From: an uncultured delta proteobacterium
Lineage (GTDB): Bacteria; Desulfobacterota; Desulfobacteria; Desulfobacterales; Desulfosalsimonadaceae
Assembly: GCA_963826785.1 (NCBI GenBank)
Contig: CAWGYD010000008.1
Coordinates: 288,001 to 352,000 of the forward strand
DNA: 64,000 nucleotides
Direction of reading: 5' to 3'
The notes under the pieces are model-generated. The model did no database searches, was not told the origin of the DNA, and was given only the letters and a program-made list of their open reading frames with translations. This document shows positions 1 to 62,068 of the stretch, one piece after another. Made by a program: the position numbers and the translations under genes. Numbering within the stretch: position 1 is the first letter of the stretch; every line of letters starts with the position of its first letter.

Positions 1-416
1 GGCTTCGGCGACGACTTCGACACCTACGCTAAGGAGCTTCTCACTCGGGCTAAGGACAACGATATCGCATGCATTGGAATCACCGATTACTTTTTGATCG
101 ATGGTTACAAGGCTTTGAGAAAAATCGTTGATGAAGACACCAAGCTGGAGGCCCTCCTCGACCCGTCCTGTGCGACGCACGCAAAGAAGGTCCTTTACTT
201 GCCGAATATCGAATTTCGCTCTTCAACGATCGTTCGCTATCGTGATGCCGGGGGAAGACTCACGATAGCCGGGTCGACTTTCACATCCTCTTCGCTGATT
301 CAGTGCCATCTGAAACAATTGAAGAGGACTTCCTGCGCGAGCTCAAGTTTTCGGCCGATGGAGCACCCGCTGCACCTGATGTGAGCTCGAATTTCAAGAA
401 ACCTTTTCCGATATAG
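1..416 (+). pseudogene. PHP-domain N-terminus of a TrlF/Ppl-like PHP-ATPase defence protein; 5' end outside the window, frameshifted near 255, truncated
   Basis: Frame 1 reads IGITDYF and LPNIEFR; after a shift in the G-run near 250-254 it reads SRVDFHILF and stops at TAG 414-416 with no ATPase domain. Confidence 0.55.
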
Positions 417-1111: not shown

Positions 1112-4100
1112 ATGAAACCCGGAGAACACAAAACCGTCCAAGCTCGGATCCTCGAATATGCTGAGGCCATCGGCTGGACTGTCGTGCCCCGCGAGGAAGC
1201 CGAGGAAAGGAGGGCGGGTTTTCCAACCCGCCATATGCAAGAAAATGGCGGACAGGGATGTCCGCCCGCCGTTAAGGCGGGTTGGAAAACCCGCCCTCCC
1301 TTGTCTCTTTTCTTCGACGACCTGCTCGACGCCAAGGTGCGGGAATTCAATCCGCGCTATGCCGAGGCCGAGGGCGCCTTGCCCGGGCGGTTCCGCCATC
1401 TCCACACCGACATCTACGGCAACCGGGAATTCGTCGAGCATCTGCGCAACCGGGGCAAATTCTTCGACCACGAGGAAAAGCGCGAGCGCGACCTGATCCT
1501 GATCGATTACGACGACCCGGCGAACAACGTTTTCGAGGTCACCGAGGAGTGGGCCTTTCACAACGGCCATTACGGCACGCGGGAGGATGTGGTCTTTCTC
1601 ATCAACGGCATTCCGGTGCTGGTGATCGAGTGCAAGAACGCCAACAAGGACGAGGCCATTGCCCTGGGGGTGGACCAGATCCGCCGTTACCACCGCGAGA
1701 CGCCCGAGCTGTTCGTGTCGCAGCAGCTATTCACCGCCACCGACGCCATCGGCTTTTCCTATGGGGTGACCTGGAACACGGTGCGGCGCAACATTTTCAA
1801 TTGGAAGCTAACGGAGGGCGGGTTTTCCAACCCGCCGCATACAAAGCTCGTATGGCGGGTTGGAAAACCCGCCCTCCGTTAACACGCACTCCTTTTTCAA
1901 TCCGCATGGTGAGATCGACAAGAAGGAGCATCGATTGCCCCATTGGCAGCAGGGCGAGGCATGGGTCTTTGTGACGTGGCGACTGGGTGATTCTCTTCCG
2001 AAGGCGAAGCTGGATCGGTGGAAGGAGGAACGCGCGATATGGCTCTCACATCATCCCGAACCGTGGGATGAAAAGACCGAAGCCGAGTATCACGAGCGTT
2101 TTTCCAGCCAGATCGACGAGTGGCTGGATCAAGGGAGCGGGTCGTGTGTGCTGAAAGACCCGGCGAACGCGAAGATGGTGGCGGATGCGTTGAGGCATTT
2201 CGATGGTGAGCGATATGAGATCGCGTCGTTCGTGGTGATGCCGAATCACGTTCACGTGTTGTTCCGACCGCTGGGCAAACACACGCTGCCGGAGATACTG
2301 AAGTCGTGGAAAGGATTCACGGCGCGGGAGATCAACAAGCGGATCGGGAAGACGGGAGCGCTTTGGCAGGATGAGTATTGGGATCGGTTGATTCGGAATG
2401 AGCGGCACTTTTTCAAGGTGGCGGAATACATCCGGGAGAATCCGGTGAAGGCAAAGCTTGAAGGAGGGGGCAGTTCATACGTGGAGGGCGGGTTTTCCAA
2501 CCGCCGTATGCAAAATTAGAATGGCGGACAGGAAAGTCCGCCCTCCTAGAGCATGGCGGGTTGGAAAACCCGCCCTCCGTTGACGTTCCCGGCCGACTGG
2601 AAGCAAAGGTCAAGACCTTCTGCGCCATCCCGCAGGTACTCGCCTTCCTGAAGGACTACATCGTCTTTGCCGAGAAGGACGAGGAGCTGAACAAATACAT
2701 CCTGCGCCAGCACCAGACCGGCGCGGTGGAGGCGGCCGTCGGCCGGGCCCTCGATCCCCGGCGCACCCGCGGGCTGGTCTGGCACACCCAGGGCAGCGGC
2801 AAGACCTTCACCATGATCAAGGCGGCGGAACGGCTTTTCCGCGCGCCCGAGGCGGACAAGCCCACCATCCTGCTGATGATCGACCGCAACGAGCTGGAAG
2901 ACCAGATGCTCAAGAACCTCGCCGCGCTCGGCCTGGGCAACCTGGAGCACGCCGGCAGCATCGCCCGGCTCAACCGGTTGCTGCGCGACGACTACCGGGG
3001 CATCATCGTGACGATGATCCACAAGTTCCGCGACATGCCGGCGGATCTCAACACGCGCGCAAACATCTACGTCCTCATCGACGAAGCCCATCGCACCACC
3101 GGCGGCGATCTCGGCAACTTCCTCATGGCCGGCCTGCCGAACGCCACCTTCCTCGGTTTCACCGGCACCCCGGTGGACAAGACCGCCTACGGCAAGGGCA
3201 CCTTCAAGACCTTCGGCTGCGAGGACGACCAGGGCTACCTGCACAAGTATTCCATCGCCGACAGCATCGAGGACGGCACCACCCTGCCGCTCTACTACCA
3301 GCTCGCGCCAAATGAAATGCTCGTGCCCGCACGAGACGCTGGATGCGGAATTCCTCTCCCTCGCCGAAGCCGAGGGCGTGGCCGACATCGAGGAGCTGAA
3401 CAAGATCCTCGAGCGGGCGGTGAACCTGAAGAATTTCCTCAAGGGCAAGGACCGGATACAAAAGGTGGCGCAGTTCGTCGCCGAACATTACCGCGAGAAC
3501 GTCGAGCCGCTCGGCTACAAGGCCTTTCTCGTCGGCGTGGACCGCGAAGCCTGCGCCCACTACAAGCACGCCCTCGATCAGTTCCTGCCGCCCGAGTATT
3601 CCGAGGTCGTTTACACCGGCAGCAACAACGACTCGGCCCTGCTGAAGGAATTCCACCTCGACCCGAAGAAGGAGCGGCAGATCCGCAAGAGCTTCGGCAA
3701 GCTCGACCAGCAGCCGAAGATCCTGATCGTCACCGAGAAACTGCTCACCGGCTTCGACGCGCCCGTGCTCTACGCCATGTATCTCGACAAGCCGATGCGC
3801 GACCACACCCTGCTGCAGGCCATCGCCCGGGTGAACCGCCCCTACGAGAACGAGGCCCGGGAGATGGTGAAGCCCCACGGCTTCGTTCTGGATTTCGTCG
3901 GCATCTTCGACAAGCTGGAAAAGGCGCTGGCCTTCGACAGCGACGAGATCAACGCCATCGTCAAGGATCTGAAGCTCCTGAAGGTGCTCTTCAAAAACAA
4001 GATGGAGAGATTTCAAGGGAGGGCGGACTTTCCAGTCCGCCTTGGAGAAGCAGACGCGGGTTGGAAAACCCGCGCTCCGTTCGAATTCAACGACAAGGAC

Positions 4101-4887
4101 GTCGATACCCTCATCGAGCACTTCCGCGATCCCGAGCGGCGCAAGGAGTTTTTCAAGGAATACAAGGAGATCGAGATGCTCTACGAGATCATCTCGCCGG
4201 ACGCCTTCCTGCGGCCGTTCATCAGCGACTACGGAACGCTCGCGGCCATCTATGCCGTTGTTCGGAAGGCCTACGCCAAGCGGGTCATGGTGGACCGGGA
4301 CTTCCAGAGAAAGACGAACGAGCTGGTGCAGAGGCATATCGGAACCAGCTATATCCTGCCCGTCGAGGACACCCTGGAAATCAATGAGGATACCGTAAGG
4401 TATATCGTCGATAAAAAGGGGGGCGACAACAGCAAGGTCATCAACCTGGTCAAAAGCATCGGAAAGGCGGCGGAAGAACAAAGTGACGATCCCTATCTGA
4501 TTGCCATGGCCGAGCGCGCGCGGGTTGTCCAGGAGGCATTTGAAGATCGGCAGGCCACTACGGCCGAAACGCTGGCCAAGCTGCTTCGCGAGGTGGAGGC
4601 GAACGAGGCCCGCAAAAAGGAACAGGCCGCCAAAGGAATCGACGGTCTGACGTTTTTCGTCTACCGCATGCTGGAGGATGCGAAGATCGGGAACGCCGAG
4701 GCCGTCAGCCGCAAAATCCGGGAGGCCTTTGTCGAAACGCCGAACTGGAAACGCAGCGACAGCCAGCTTCGGGAGCTGCGCAAGAAGGTTACTTTTGCCA
4801 TCTTTGCGGAATGTGACGACCTCGATCGCGGTAACCGCATTGGTGAATGATCTGTTCCGCGTACTGGAAAAGGCGGACAGGATTTAA
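1112..4887 (+). CDS. hsdR: Type I restriction enzyme subunit R, interrupted by a REP/RAYT insertion (about 1808-2581), with frameshifts near 3330 and 4830
   Basis: Nuclease motif REDVVFLINGIPVLVIECK and QIRRY; Walker A HTQGSGKT, DEAHR, FTGTP, LLTGFDAP, QAIARVNR; assembled from ORFs 1112, 2561, 3312 and 4678. Confidence 0.93.
1209..1299. repeat. REP cluster 1 (3 hairpin arms), translated in frame within hsdR
   Basis: GGAG-GGCGGGTT-TTCC-AACCCGCC (1209-1232), variant arm 1247-1270, inverted arm 1276-1299. Confidence 0.9.
1809..1881. repeat. REP cluster 2 (inverted doublet) on the left flank of RAYT
   Basis: Arms 1813-1836 and 1854-1877 form a perfect inverted repeat extended by TAAC/GTTA. Confidence 0.9.
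1860..2519 (+). CDS. rayT: REP-associated tyrosine transposase (RAYT/TnpA-REP, Y1 HUH family) nested in hsdR
   Basis: HRLPHW, FVTWRLGDSLP, HUH motif VVMPNHVH, WQDEYWDRLIR, catalytic YIRENPVKA; flanked by REPs; the annotated start is a TTG inside a REP arm. Confidence 0.9.
   Translation: MENPPSVNTHSFFNPHGEIDKKEHRLPHWQQGEAWVFVTWRLGDSLPKAKLDRWKEERAIWLSHHPEPWDEKTEAEYHERFSSQIDEWLDQGSGSCVLKDPANAKMVADALRHFDGERYEIASFVVMPNHVHVLFRPLGKHTLPEILKSWKGFTAREINKRIGKTGALWQDEYWDRLIRNERHFFKVAEYIRENPVKAKLEGGGSSYVEGGFSNRRMQN
2483..2578. repeat. REP cluster 3 (3 arms) on the right flank of RAYT
   Basis: Arm 2483-2505 (one C short of consensus), arms 2523-2546 and 2555-2578 with a 32-nt period. Confidence 0.9.
4018..4078. 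repeat. REP cluster 4 (diverged doublet), translated in frame within the hsdR C-terminal region
   Basis: GGAG-GGCGGACT-TTCC-AGTCCGCC (4018-4041) and CGCGGGTT-GGAA-AACCCGCG-CTCC (4055-4078). Confidence 0.88.
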
Positions 4888-4890
4888 CTC

Positions 4891-5220
4891 ATGGACAACC
4901 CGGATACAAAGACGGCGTTCAAGGAGCGGGTTCGCCACTGGGCCGAAAAGCTCGATGTGAATGTCGTCTGGCTCGGGGTGCGGCCGATGAGCAACAAATG
5001 GGCCTCGTGCTCCACCGCCGGCCACCTGAACTTCAACGCCGATCTGCTCGACCTGAAAACCGAGCTGTGGGACTACGTCATCGTCCACGAACTGCTGCAC
5101 TTCTTTGTTCCAAACCATGGAAAACTATGGAAGAGCCTGATGCGCGCCCATCTGGGCGATTATGAGGCTTATGAAGCAGAGTTGAAGCAGATAGCGCAAA
5201 ACAAGCGCTTTCACAGCTGA
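4891..5220 (+). CDS. M48/YgjP (DUF45) zinc metallopeptidase, a common neighbour of type I R-M genes
   Basis: KWASCS, YVIVHELLH, PNHGKLW. Confidence 0.85.
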   Translation: MDNPDTKTAFKERVRHWAEKLDVNVVWLGVRPMSNKWASCSTAGHLNFNADLLDLKTELWDYVIVHELLHFFVPNHGKLWKSLMRAHLGDYEAYEAELKQIAQNKRFHS

Positions 5221-8685: not shown

Positions 8686-10321
8686 ACGATCATATACCAG
8701 CAGCCCGCCGCAACGGACAGGCCCCGGACGTGCTCCGGCCGGGAAAGACGCCTCCCCATGCGCTGCTTCTCCGATGCCGAAGAAGTCGATTTTGCCATCG
8801 TCGGCACCGGCGCCGGCGGGGGCACCCTGGCCGCAAAACTGGCCCAGTCCGGCTTCTCCGTGGTGGCCTTCGACGCCGGCCCCTTCTGGCGGCCCCTGGA
8901 GGAATTCACCTCGGATGAAAAGTCCCAGCAGAAGCTCTACTGGACCGACGACCGGATCAGCGCCGGAGAAAACCCCATCGAGTTCGGCCGGAACAACAGC
9001 GGTAAAGGCGTGGGCGGCTGCACCGTCCATTTCACCATGGTCTCCCTGCGCTTTCGCCCGGAGTGGTTCAAGGCCAGATCAAAAATGGGGTATGCGGTGG
9101 ACTGGCCCATCACCTGGGAGGAGATGTGGCGATACTACGAAGCGGTGGAGCAGGCATTAAAAATCTCCGGGCCGGTGCAACTACCCCTGGGGCCCGCCCC
9201 GGGGCCGCTACCCCTACCGGCCCCACGAGGTGAATGCCGCCGGACTGGTGCTGGGCCGGGCCGCCGATGCCATGGGAATCGCCTGGGCCCCCACGCCTCT
9301 GGCCACCATCTCCGCCCCCCGGGGGCGCGCCCATCCCTGCGTTTACCGGGGCTTCTGCCAGGTCGGGTGCTCCACCAATGCCAAGCAGAGCATCCTGGTC
9401 ACCCGGATTCCTGCGGCCATCAAAGCCGGGGCGGAGATCCGGGACAAATCCATGGTGGGCCGGATCGAGATCAATGATTCCGGACGGGCCACCGGGGTCA
9501 AGTACCACCGGGACGGCCAGTGGCGCTTTCAAAAAGCCCGTCATGTGGTGGTGGCGGGCTATGCCATCGAGACCCCCCGCCTGCTGCTCAACTCCGCCTG
9601 CCCCCCGTTTCCGGACGGGCTGGCCAACTCCAGCGGCCTGGTGGGCAAAAATCTCATGCCCCAGGCCAACCACGCGGTGTGGGGGATCATGGAAGACGAA
9701 ATCCGCTGGTACAAGGGGCCGCCCACCATGGCCATCACCGAGCACTGGAACTACACCGACACGGGCAAGGATTTTCCCGGGGGCTACTGCTTCCTCAGCC
9801 AGGGGCCGCTGCCCATCGACTGGGCCCACAGCGTGGCGGGCAAGCGGGGGCTTTGGGGGATGGCCCTGCGGGAGCAGATGACCCGGTACAACCACCAGGC
9901 GGGATTGAAGATCGTGGGGGAGGTGCTCCCCCGGGAGGAGAACCGCGTGGAGTTGTCGGACGAAACCGACGCCCTGGGGCTGCCCATCCCCAAGATCACC
10001 TTTTCCTATGGGGAAGAAGACAAACGGCTGCAGGCTCATGCCCTTGATTTCATGCGCCAGGGGCTGGTCGCTGCCGGGGGGAGCGACCTCTGGCACGAAT
10101 CGGGCACCGCCCACCTGCTGGGCACCTGCCGGATGGGAAACAGCCCCTCTTCCAGCGTCACCGATGCCGACGGCCGGACCTGGGATATTCCCAATCTCTG
10201 GATCTGCGACGGATCGCTCTTTCCCACCAGCGGCGGCGTGAACCCGTCATTGACCATCCAGGCCCTGGCCTGCCGCATGGCAGACCGGATTGTGGCCCAA
10301 TCCCGCCGGGGGGAAATTTGA
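8682..10321 (+). CDS. GMC-family FAD oxidoreductase (two frameshifts near 8750 and 9180)
   Basis: IVGTGAGGG, GVGGCTVH, ETPRLLLNS, HLLGTCRMG, DGSLFPTSGGVNPSLTI. Confidence 0.88.
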
Positions 10322-10380
10322 TGGCGCATGCTTTGCAAGGAACATACTCGGAAAGGGGTTTAAATAATTTCTTTTTTGTT

Positions 10381-10592
10381 TTTCGCAGGTCCGACACCCC
10401 CCTTCGCCCCCCTCAAGGGGGGAATTGAGAGGGTGGGGCACCCTTCGAGGGGTGGAATTAAAGGAGGATGTCCCTCGAGGGAGGGAATAAAAGGGGGGTG
10501 CCCTTCGAGGGAGGAAATAAAAGGGGGGTGCCTCGAGGGAGGAAAGAGGGACATCCCTTGAGGGGAGGGGAAAGCGAGATATCCCCTCGCGG
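10381..10592. repeat. Tandem array of about six G-rich ~30-nt palindromic units (second REP-like family)
   Basis: CCCTTCGAGGGAGGAAATAAAAGGGGGGTG-like units with exact 30-nt period at 10441, 10471 and 10501. Confidence 0.8.
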
Positions 10593-10633: not shown

Positions 10634-12389
10634 ATGCCCGGCGCCATGGTCCCCACTGAACGGCTGTATGCCTTTATCGCCGACGGCGAGCGCGGGGCGC
10701 TCATCGACCCTTCCGGCGGCATTTCCTGGATGTGCATGCCCTCCTGGGACGGGGATGCTTTTTTCACATCCCTGCTGGGCGGGGCCGGGATCTACAGCGT
10801 CAGCCCGCAGGAGAGCTATGTCTGGGGCGGCTATTATGAATCCGGCACGCTGGTCTGGCGCAACCGCTGGACCCTGACCGGCGGACCGATTGTCGAATGC
10901 CATGACGCCCTGGCCTTTCCCGGCGATCCGGAAAGGGCGCTGCTGCTGCGGCGACTGAGTGCGGAAAAGGGCGAAGTCAGGATGCGAATCGTCCTGGATA
11001 TCCGGCCCGAATACGGAAAAAAACGCATCCAGAACTGGAAGCAATCGGAACAGGGGATATGGTCCGGCCACCTGGATCCGCTGCAGGTACAGTGGCACGG
11101 CGCAGCGGATGCCCGCTTTTCGAAGGATGAGGGGCTGGTGATGGAAGTCACCCTCGCGGCGGGGCAGCATCATGATCTGCTGCTCGCGCTTTCCTGCCGG
11201 CCCATGAAAGACGAAAAGTTTGATCCGGATGCCCTCTGGAGTTCCACCCGCAGGGCCTGGGAACTGTCCGCACCCAAGCTGGACCGGTGCGCGGGGCAGC
11301 GCGACGCCCTGCATGCCTATGTGGTCCTCCGGGGATTGACCACGAAAAGCGGCGGCATGGCTTCTGCGGCCACCACCTCCCTTCCGGAGCGGAGCGACTC
11401 GGGCCGCAATTACGATTACCGCTACGTCTGGATTCGGGACCAATGCTGGACCGGCCAGGCCATGGCCGCCATCGCACCTGACTTCCTGCTGAGCGAATCC
11501 GTCCGGTTTATCCAGGACCGATTGCTGGAAGACGGGCCGGATCTTCGGCCGGTCTACACCCCATCCGGCGAAAAAGTCCCCGCAGAAAAAGATCTTTCAC
11601 ACCTGCCCGGCTACCCGGGTGGAGCCCAAAATCATCATCGGCAACAAGGCCGGGGAGCAGTTTCAGCTGGATGCCTTCGGCGAGGCGCTTCTGCTCTTTG
11701 CCGCCGCCGCCCGGCACGACACACTGGATGCGATGGGATGGCGGGCGGCGGAAGTCGCGGTGAATGCCATTAAAAATCGCTGGCAGGAAAAGGGGGCCGG
11801 TCTGTGGGAGACTAAACCCCATTGCTGGACCCACAGCCGGCTGATCTGCGCGGCGGGGCTCAAGCAGATCGCCATGAACGGCGCACCGCGCCGGGTGGCT
11901 TCCCAGTGGCTGGCCCTGGCCGAAACCATCCTGGCCGAAACTGCCGGGATGTCCGTCCACCGGTCCGGGTACTGGCAGCGCTCACCCGAAGACGACCGGG
12001 TGGATGCCTCCCTGCTCCTGCCGGTGCTGCGGGGGGCCCTGTACCATAAGGACCCCCGGAGCAAGGCCACCCTGGAAAAGATCGAGCACGACCTGGCCCG
12101 GGACGGCTACTGCTACCGGTTCAAGTCCTCCCTCCCCCTGTCCCGGGCAGAAGGGGCCTTTTCCATCTGCGGGTATTGGCTCTGCCTCACTTACCTCCAG
12201 CAGAAGGATTACACCGAAGCCGTGCGCTGGTTCGAGCGCGCCCGGTCCAGCTGCGGCCCGCCCGGCCTTTATGCCGAAGAATACGATGTCATCCAGCGGG
12301 AGCTGCGGGGCAACCTCCCCCAGGCCTTTGTCCACGCCGTCCTGCTGGAATGCGCCGCGCGTATCGGCCAGGAGATCGGCTACCGATAG
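10634..12389 (+). CDS. Glycoside hydrolase family 15 (trehalase/glucoamylase-like), frameshift near 11620
   Basis: YAFIADGERGAL, TTSLPE, RNYDYRYVWIRD, QLDAFGE, GLYAEEYD, GNLPQAFVH. Confidence 0.9.
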
Positions 12390-19577: not shown

Positions 19578-19757
19578 TTATCCAGATAACGCCAGTCTTG
19601 ATTATTGGTGACAGTTCTCCCCACTTTCGGAAGGGAGGCGGGAGATTTAAGATTCCGGCGTGTCAAATCCCCCTGAATCCCCCTTTTCTAAGGGGGACTT
19701 ATATCAAAATTTACCAAGCACTTGCTTTTGCTGAATAAACTGGAGTTATCCGGATAA
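19578..19757. mobile_element. MITE-like element with terminal inverted repeats and internal CCCCCTTTT..AAGGGGG hairpins
   Basis: TTATCCAGATAACGCCAGT / ACTGGAGTTATCCGGATAA, 17 of 19 complementary. Confidence 0.55.
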
Positions 19758-21755: not shown

Positions 21756-21827
21756 TGTTTTCGCCGGCCCGACACCCCCCTTCGCCCCCCTCGAGGGGGG
21801 GAATAAAAAGGGGGGGTGCCCTTCGCG
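21756..21827. repeat. Copy of the G-rich REP-like family seen at 10381
   Basis: CCGACACCCCCCTTCGCCCCCCTC(A/G)AGGGGGG shared with 10391-10422. Confidence 0.75.
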
Positions 21828-28992: not shown

Positions 28993-29180
28993 TTATCCAT
29001 GAAACTCCAGCAGCGTTTTTGGCTATTATTTTCTCCTCCCTTTCCTCAAAAGGGGGGCCGGGGGGGATTTAATTTCGGCGCGTCAACATCTCTTGAAATC
29101 CCCCTAAATCCCCCTTTTAAAAGGGGGACTTTTGTGCCCCGATTTCAAAGAGAATATAATTACCAATTTACTGGAGTTAA
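28993..29180. mobile_element. MITE-like element of the 19578 family
   Basis: AACTCCAG...CTGGAGTT ends; internal AAATCCCCCTAAATCCCCCTTTTAAAAGGGGGACTT. Confidence 0.55.
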
Positions 29181-34736: not shown

Positions 34737-34776
34737 CCCCTCCAGGGGGGAATTAAAGGGGGAGTGTCCCCCCTCT
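34737..34776. repeat. Single unit of the G-rich REP-like family
   Basis: CCCCTCCAGGGGGGAATTAAAGGGGGAGTGTCCCCCCTCT. Confidence 0.6.
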
Positions 34777-61979: not shown

Positions 61980-62068
61980 TCTCCCCCCTTTTGAAAAGGG
62001 GGGCGGGGGGGATTTCTCCCGGGAGGCACCAAAATCCCCCTAAATCCCCCTTTTCAAAAGGGGGACTT
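61980..62068. repeat. Paired CCCCCTTTT..AAAGGGGG hairpins (same core as 19578 and 28993)
   Basis: CTCCCCCCTTTTGAAAAGGGGGG and AAATCCCCCTAAATCCCCCTTTTCAAAAGGGGGACTT. Confidence 0.75.

Follow-up and report, generated by a model that had tools for sequence, protein, structure and literature searches.

A predicted RAYT transposase, flanked by REP hairpins, forms an in-frame domain of the type I restriction subunit HsdR

How does a family of REP hairpins come to be read as protein inside a restriction enzyme, and what part does the accompanying RAYT transposase play? The locus that raises this question occupies the first 5 kb of the window (the whole 64,000-nucleotide stretch analysed here, from an uncultured delta proteobacterium), which are the end of a type I restriction-modification (R-M) locus. 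An earlier note on this DNA had proposed that the hairpins are peptide inserts in hsdR, seeded by a neighbouring RAYT gene that acts as a local protein-diversifying agent. In this family (AAC)GGAG is followed by an 8-bp stem with a 4-nt loop, and the window contains ten such arms in clusters of three, two, three and two (Table 1). As the note had claimed, all ten lie between the hsdR start at 1112 and its stop at 4887, and the peptides that it had read from clusters 1 and 4 are both present in the sequence, in one common REP frame. The frame is unbroken across these two clusters, but not across hsdR as a whole, which as assembled is not one frame because of single-base indels.

The host protein has the features of a type I HsdR: a nuclease domain, Walker A, DEAH and motif VI, an EcoR124I-like fold, and hsdM and hsdS in the same locus. 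TIGR00348 matches each piece of hsdR, but below its cut-off. The gene that we take, from its motifs, to be the hsdS of this locus is badly frameshifted here and has no Pfam match. Between hsdS and hsdR lies a frameshifted fragment of a TrlF-family gene (window 1-384). An 85% copy of the hsdR start (524-570 versus 1115-1161) is found 591 nt upstream, before an HTH gene (710-1057), and duplicated hsdR 5' ends were seen in several relatives too.

Table 1. Features of the hsdR locus in the window (positions in the window)
Feature	Position	Strand	Remark
hsdR, encoding the type I restriction subunit R and holding the RAYT cassette; split into four ORF pieces in the assembly	1112..4887	+	HSDR_N, SWI2_SNF2/ResIII, T1R_D3-like
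REP cluster 1 (site A), three arms, nuclease domain	1209..1299	.	takes the place of 16 host codons
RAYT cassette (site B)	1808..2587	+	780 nt versus 9 nt in empty alleles
Left REP pair of the cassette, inverted doublet	1813..1877	.	one net extra base versus the fused frame
RAYT (Y1 HUH) domain	1890..2447	+	HUH 2247-2255, Tyr 2427-2429, PF01797
Right REP cluster of the cassette, three arms	2483..2578	.	first arm one base short of consensus
Extra base shifting the hsdR frame, probable assembly error	3325..3329	+	absent in 70/70 aligned relatives and in related contigs from four runs
REP cluster 4 (site C), two arms, after the motor domains	4018..4078	.	inside a 78-nt segment standing for 13 host codons
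Extra base close to the end of hsdR, probably an assembly error	4826..4830	+	48/62 aligned relatives; related-run contigs
YgjP-like metallopeptidase gene, closes the operon, without REP	4891..5220	+	PF01863

Pattern and blastn searches of the whole source assembly (4,427,239 bases in 11 contigs, 87.8% complete) found 12 arms, ten in hsdR and two in hsdM, and none outside hsd genes; all 12 lie within 8 kb, far above the chance expectation. The hsdM arms, in one of the upstream genes that the note had suggested scanning, form a fifth cluster about 4 kb before the window start (G000:C8:284098-284153; L001:10098-10153), in the RAGFPTR frame, and hsdM as assembled runs through three frames. The tag is GGAG in 177 of 195 arms (the search tolerated one mismatch to GGAG) and GTAG in a single one, so that the family lies outside the canonical GTAG-family REPs (5' GT[AG]G). 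Nor is this a canonical REPtron, with a stand-alone gene and dispersed extragenic REPs, since the 12 arms of the genome are all genic and local. Note that the genome also holds two further palindrome-like repeat families of the CCCC...GGGG type, unrelated to the hsd REPs (window 10380-10545, 21758-21825, 34737-34761, 19665-19700, 29096-29131 and 62032-62067).

The RAYT proved not to be a neighbour of hsdR: five of the ten arms are the two ends of the cassette inside hsdR, and the RAYT is a predicted domain of HsdR itself. The ORF at 1860-2519 scored 83.4 bits with the RAYT profile NF047646 (cut-off 80), and the best match of the RAYT in a PDB sequence search was 4ER8 (E 4.7e-05). As in RAYT / TnpA_REP class 2, it carries the HUH motif (NHVH) and the catalytic Tyr within Y---NP (YIRENP), and has on either side inverted REP hairpins whose tag is conserved; NHVH, WQ and YIRENP come closest to subclass 2.7 in the published motif table, although the match is inexact. 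It falls outside IS200/IS605, with 32 bits for NF033573 against a cut-off of 55 and one close copy in the genome. The only Pfam and NCBIfam matches in the insert were the Y1_Tnp and RAYT profiles, and no protein-splicing domain was found there. The cassette occupies one codon position just after HSDR_N, with neither an ATG of its own before the RAYT core nor a stop codon of its own.

We compared the DNA between fixed anchors in related loci, taken as the best 80 of 317 matches. Since one of the six seed patterns was derived from the REP peptide and only these best matches were kept, the locus frequencies that follow are inflated. Site B could be resolved in 75 of the 80 relatives, and 16 of the 75 carry the cassette, in every case in frame and with a length that is a multiple of 3. 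These 16 carriers span five phyla: Verrucomicrobiota (10), Chlorobiota (3), Thermodesulfobacteriota, Pseudomonadota and Kiritimatiellota. Thirteen of them have complete ORFs of 1,218-1,353 aa with the nuclease, Walker A and DEAH motifs; two others run up to the end of their contig, and one has a break downstream. Searching for longer homologues, which itself selects for RAYT-like sequence, returned 729 proteins at E<=1e-20, and 98 of the best 120 combine HsdR Pfam domains with Y1_Tnp. Among the same best 120, 69 could be parsed as HsdR with a long site-B insert; HUH and Tyr are retained in 69/69, and all four host motifs were matched in 48, many of the others being partial. A Met between the host junction and the RAYT core is present in only 9 of 78. 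P0075, from the cultured Chlorobium phaeobacteroides, is an example of an intact natural fusion. Six proteins have REP-only scars at site B, and among the best 120 of 1,239 matches we found no other cargo domain at this site, only other repeat peptides. On these sequence comparisons, the hairpin-flanked cassette is an in-frame internal domain of the predicted HsdR in many bacteria.

Related RAYTs have other hosts as well: LeuRS, AlaRS (twice), Eco57I-type or type ISP enzymes, and UPF0261, MoaE and HPPK domains. Among the proteins P0088, P0111 and P0118, AlaRS holds two RAYT domains and LeuRS one, all in frame. In G013, a genome of the same family as that of the window, a related RAYT (48% identity) lies in a 1,430-codon Eco57I-type methylase frame (L091:6860-11149, G013:C29), presumably BREX PglX, which has several in-frame repeat-derived peptides of its own from a different REP family. 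A second hsdR::RAYT copy was seen at L131:2681-4117 (G047:C33), near a transposase-like ORF, and its right REP enters the tail of the downstream peptidase gene.

Alignment with orthologues, which the note had proposed for defining the boundaries, changed the picture of the two solo clusters. Rather than inserts, they are replacements, of 16 codons at site A and 13 at site C: the window has 93 nt where most relatives have 48, and 78 nt where relatives have 39, and none of the ancestral codons is retained at either site. The ancestral letters between 4009 and 4086 were found in relatives' contigs from related sequencing runs; note that the contigs, from four such runs, are uninformative on the window strain or its habitat. 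We then mapped the sites on an AlphaFold model of an insert-free relative (P0200, mean pLDDT 86.9), whose best fold match is EcoR124I HsdR (6h2j, E 1.8e-30). Site A falls on a loop and a short helix, site B on a loop directly after the HSDR_N profile, and site C on a short helix and a loop. In a set of 86 distant rows, the density of indels placed site A at the 99th, site B at the 100th and site C at the 56th percentile. The note had expected surface loops; the model and the indel density support tolerant, at least partly looped locations for sites A and B, whereas site C includes a predicted helix and is not rich in indels. The model of a fusion (L003, residues 1-1100) had a mean pLDDT of 51.5 and was not used as evidence.

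Both partners of the fusion are under purifying selection. Over 13 alleles dN/dS was 0.077 for the RAYT core (170 codons, with dS often near saturation) and 0.066 for the host flanks, and the window allele compared with L002 gave 0.07 and 0.15, respectively. In support of the selection for frame that had been proposed, REP-bearing sites were in frame in all 31 cases measured (18/18 at A, 6/6 at C and 7/7 at D). The frame shared by clusters 1 and 4 is not a rule, however: sense-strand arms in the hsd ORFs of relatives read as RAGF in 27 cases, EGGF in 35 and GGRVF in 4. The note had taken random framing together with an hsdR free of purifying selection as adverse to its reading; all three frames are used, and the host flanks are constrained. 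Arms of the Opitutales genome G049 are mostly preceded by TAAC (T in 43 of 54), and a T before AAC in the RAGF frame would give a stop codon; coding arms read as RAGF retain this T in 1 of 27 cases, and those read as EGGF in 21 of 35. We gave no weight to the stop-free arms (69 of 74) as a sign of selection, since this is expected for GC-rich 24-mers.

What is conserved in the REPs is their pairing. At variable positions the stems of 56 distinct arms, taken without a pairing filter, paired at 0.88 against 0.52 when shuffled (kinship ignored), and the lengths of the REP peptides vary widely. These comparisons indicate that the constraint is on the DNA hairpin and the frame, and that the peptide is unconstrained. 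Since all three frames are used, and it is the DNA pairing and not the peptide that is kept, the role of RAYT as an adaptive protein-diversifying agent is unsupported: the peptides carry no sign of selection, and unrelated palindrome families occupy the same sites.

Are the hairpins seeded locally by the fused RAYT? Of the 16 loci with RAYT, 14 have REPs at A, C or D, as do 3 of the 59 without it (r2 about 0.65); the same peptides in loci that lack RAYT, a pattern that the note had named as contrary to its proposal, are thus seen in three. By comparison, pairs of SNPs in hsdR that lie more than 10 nt apart have an r2 of about 0.03, and linkage reaches the background level beyond about 10-30 nt. 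Outlying arms also resemble the RAYT-flanking arms of their own locus (2.03 mismatches) more than those of other loci (3.10; permutation p 0.00015 over 14 loci, with L048 and L052 excluded), although such p values overstate the case because the loci are related. In ten other genomes, scanned with two different search patterns, the arms occur only in hsd loci in eight, as 5 of 6 arms in one, and genome-wide in G049. L013 is a RAYT-free sister of a RAYT allele (L008/L013, 1.9% apart) with a filled-type flank and REPs in hsdR, hsdM and hsdS; no close RAYT was found in its genome, and it likely represents loss of the cassette. Hence hairpins at other sites accompany RAYT, which supports local seeding in the lineage. 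Seeding in the window genome itself does not follow: near-identical peptides stand at the same sites in other phyla, so the window's clusters appear to be inherited and not made there.

Two further candidates did not hold. Homing of the cassette was hinted at by a quick tree (57 rows; 6 of 54 inner branches starred), in which filled alleles are scattered, and by the nearest neighbour of a filled allele being an empty one in 11 of 13 cases; SNP linkage decays equally fast, and homing is not shown because general recombination explains the pattern. A cleavage site between C and T at the left end of the cassette (CTA starts 10 of 17) was dropped too, the base before TAAC-GGAG being C in only 2 of 54 G049 arms.

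Taken together, we consider it likely that HsdR carries an in-frame RAYT domain whose fused transposase copies hairpins into nearby tolerant loops, where frame-keeping copies persist, and that the window holds the same fusion. The cassette would use the promoter and ribosome entry of its host and stay unspliced, and HsdR may keep working because site B is where the family tolerates indels best. TnpA_REP recognizes REP in single-stranded form; with the four-base tag as its guide, it cuts close by, becoming linked to the DNA through its Tyr, and joins strands again (PMC8266576). By the same chemistry the HUH-Tyr domain would nick and rejoin single-stranded REP hairpins, mostly in cis. The activity, expression and cis preference of the fused RAYT are what we infer from this likeness. 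In further loops of hsdR, hsdM and hsdS, REP copies would take the place of 13-16 codons; out-of-frame or stop-bearing copies are absent from the pattern, and those breaking hsdM or hsdR would be purged. The whole R-M locus may move between phyla and recombine freely, and the cassette may be lost by REP-to-REP deletion, leaving in-frame REP scars. The REP peptides would then be a tolerated by-product and the transposase likely a tolerated parasite. Some findings fit this explanation poorly: the position of site C, with its middling indel percentile and predicted helix; the arms of G049, which are not local; and the peptides in RAYT-free loci, together with a near-identity across phyla that fits inheritance.

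The last of these would be expected if a single acquisition in a REP-rich host had brought in both the cassette and the solo REPs, which now travel passively with the R-M locus, the RAYT being locally idle and conserved only for folding in HsdR. G049 could represent such a host, with 142 arms genome-wide, mostly non-coding (in 38 hand-picked stretches, 2 of 41 clusters have 100 open codons on both sides), and the HsdR-fused RAYT as the only close RAYT found. Its arms (L093-L130) lie in long non-coding mosaics of several short repeat families. The peptides of sites C and A are near-identical across phyla, with the same junctions, free recombination explains the patchy tree, and in other alleles sites A, B and D are occupied by unrelated palindrome families that have no cargo. 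Such families, in frame at the same hsdR or hsdM sites and with no cargo gene found, were observed in L023, L032, L043, L045, L039, L044 and L029, and in P0121-P0199. An idle enzyme is, however, hard to reconcile with catalytic residues retained in 69 of 69 fusions and with compensating changes that keep the hairpins paired inside coding DNA. Moreover, REP sites 0.5-7 kb away stay tied to RAYT and share a locus-specific REP variant, whereas SNP linkage is gone within 30 nt. We therefore regard passive carriage as rather unlikely.

Could the RAYT instead have been domesticated? It might serve the R-M system by nicking hairpin-bearing ssDNA that HsdR encounters while translocating; alternatively, deletions from one REP to another could silence restriction in a fraction of the population. 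The cassette is old and purified, with a RAYT dS above the host dS in 9/9 computable comparisons with the window allele, many hosts among the close homologues are restriction or methylase proteins, and the nuclease domain between sites A and B is gone in two database proteins (P0018 and P0020). Yet two deletions are an ordinary outcome of repeats, 59 of the 75 resolved relatives lack the cassette, and the same group of RAYTs is fused to LeuRS, AlaRS, UPF0261, MoaE and HPPK, which have no common defence role, so that domestication is, in our judgement, unlikely.

For the window genome only, it could also be argued that the indels are real and the locus freshly dead or split, with REPs and RAYT as relics. 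As assembled, hsdR lies in four ORF pieces, with single-base indels near 1846, 2450-2503, 3325 and 4826, about seven in all (the left REP pair has a net gain of one base; the RAYT end, as we read the alignment, has gained three and lost one; and 3325 and 4826 each carry an extra base), and hsdM lies in three frames. The core genes are clean: 36 housekeeping genes, 35 of them on another contig, align over 9,045 residues with 0 frameshifts, so that errors do not extend across the whole genome. The background is only 1-4 frameshift-like events per 100 kb, by an insensitive detector that missed the 3325 shift. Decay would not be expected, however, to leave 601 near-invariant columns (59 sequences) without a true substitution and the hsdR pieces without nonsense codons beside about seven indels; the 5 deviations recorded at these columns are artefacts of join and truncation, and intact relatives have 0-20. 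The cassette length is still a multiple of 3, and hsdS, aligned with 2-4 relatives, has 22 frame-breaking indel calls in 450 bp, a density too high for decay. Two genes unrelated to hsd, for a GMC oxidoreductase (8758-10321) and a GH15 protein (10634-12389), are each split by frameshifts as well. Among the indexed runs we found no reads of the same strain (best share 0.18). On this evidence real decay looks improbable, and the hsdR indels are very probably local consensus (assembly) errors in a likely copy of the same HsdR-RAYT fusion. The inference of the note that HsdR stayed functional is supported by the purifying selection on the family, but not by the window copy as assembled.

Lastly, HUH enzymes do cut and rejoin single strands (PMC8266576) and sister alleles with and without the cassette exist (L008/L013), but an ON/OFF switch, in which hsdR stays interrupted until the cassette is excised from the DNA or spliced out of the RNA, is very improbable, since the cassette is in frame in 16/16 relatives and needs no removal, filled and empty alleles differ at 4 of the first 8 right-flank bases, so that clean excision would not yield the common empty allele, and RNA-run contigs leaving at 1807 run on as an ordinary empty allele.

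How does this system compare with those already known? Inteins and homing endonuclease inserts also have a mobile enzyme that keeps the reading frame of its host gene, sits at a constant position and is present in some alleles and absent from others, whereas here Pfam and NCBIfam detected no splicing domain. The system is built of known parts and is a variant of RAYT-REP. With the REPtron / RAYT described for E. coli TnpA_REP (4ER8; PMC6006769, PMC5581495, PMC8266576) it shares the Y1 HUH and Y---NP motifs, inverted REP doublets, a short stem with a four-base tag at its foot and few copies per genome. In contrast to those accounts, RAYT is here an internal domain of a host protein and not a stand-alone gene, the tag is GGAG and not GT[AG]G, and the REPs lie within genes, most of them in a single operon; vertical inheritance is described as the main mode for RAYTs (PMC5581495), whereas this locus is about 95% identical between phyla. 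In TnpA_Y1 subclass 2.4 (PMC6006769) in-frame REPs also occur within coding sequence beside their own transposase, but there the REPs are inside tnpA_REP, while here the whole tnpA_REP is inside another gene, and the Y motif is YIRENP instead of YIxNNP. Rickettsia palindromic elements (PMC10969869) are likewise palindromic DNA in frame inside working proteins, but are about 150 bp long, genome-wide and without an internal transposase.

In-frame REPs are themselves already on record, even in a methylase. Di Nocera et al. 2013 (PMC3733652) reported GTAG/CGTC REP dimers translated as 20-30-residue peptides in known proteins, with most intragenic REPs in Opitutus terrae and one in the N-6 DNA methylase Oter_3011; we found no account of a fused transposase or of replaced host codons in that paper, and GGAG occurs 0 times in its main text. 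Quentin et al. 2018 (PMC6006769) set unexpectedly long proteins aside as gene fusions or annotation errors. A diversifying role of TnpA_REP has been proposed for prochlorosins (bioRxiv 10.1101/2020.03.09.984088), a claim later softened. In the literature open without subscription, we found no RAYT fused inside HsdR.

Annotation conceals such fusions, since the proteins are named simply HsdR. More tentatively than the copying scheme favoured above, HsdR::RAYT may be a restriction enzyme that contains an active hairpin recombinase and through it edits its own operon in cis, placing REP peptides into loops and deleting the nuclease domain between REPs, and one of a class of unspliced 'domain parasites' in defence enzymes and even tRNA synthetases. 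The finding bears on the persistence of single-copy RAYTs and on the spread of REPs, and it shows a route for mobile DNA to live within genes without splicing. With RAYT and all its REPs in one mobile locus of 8-10 kb, and filled, empty and scarred alleles in dozens of genomes, the family offers a compact test bed, well suited to the question of whether the enzyme is selfish or serves its host.
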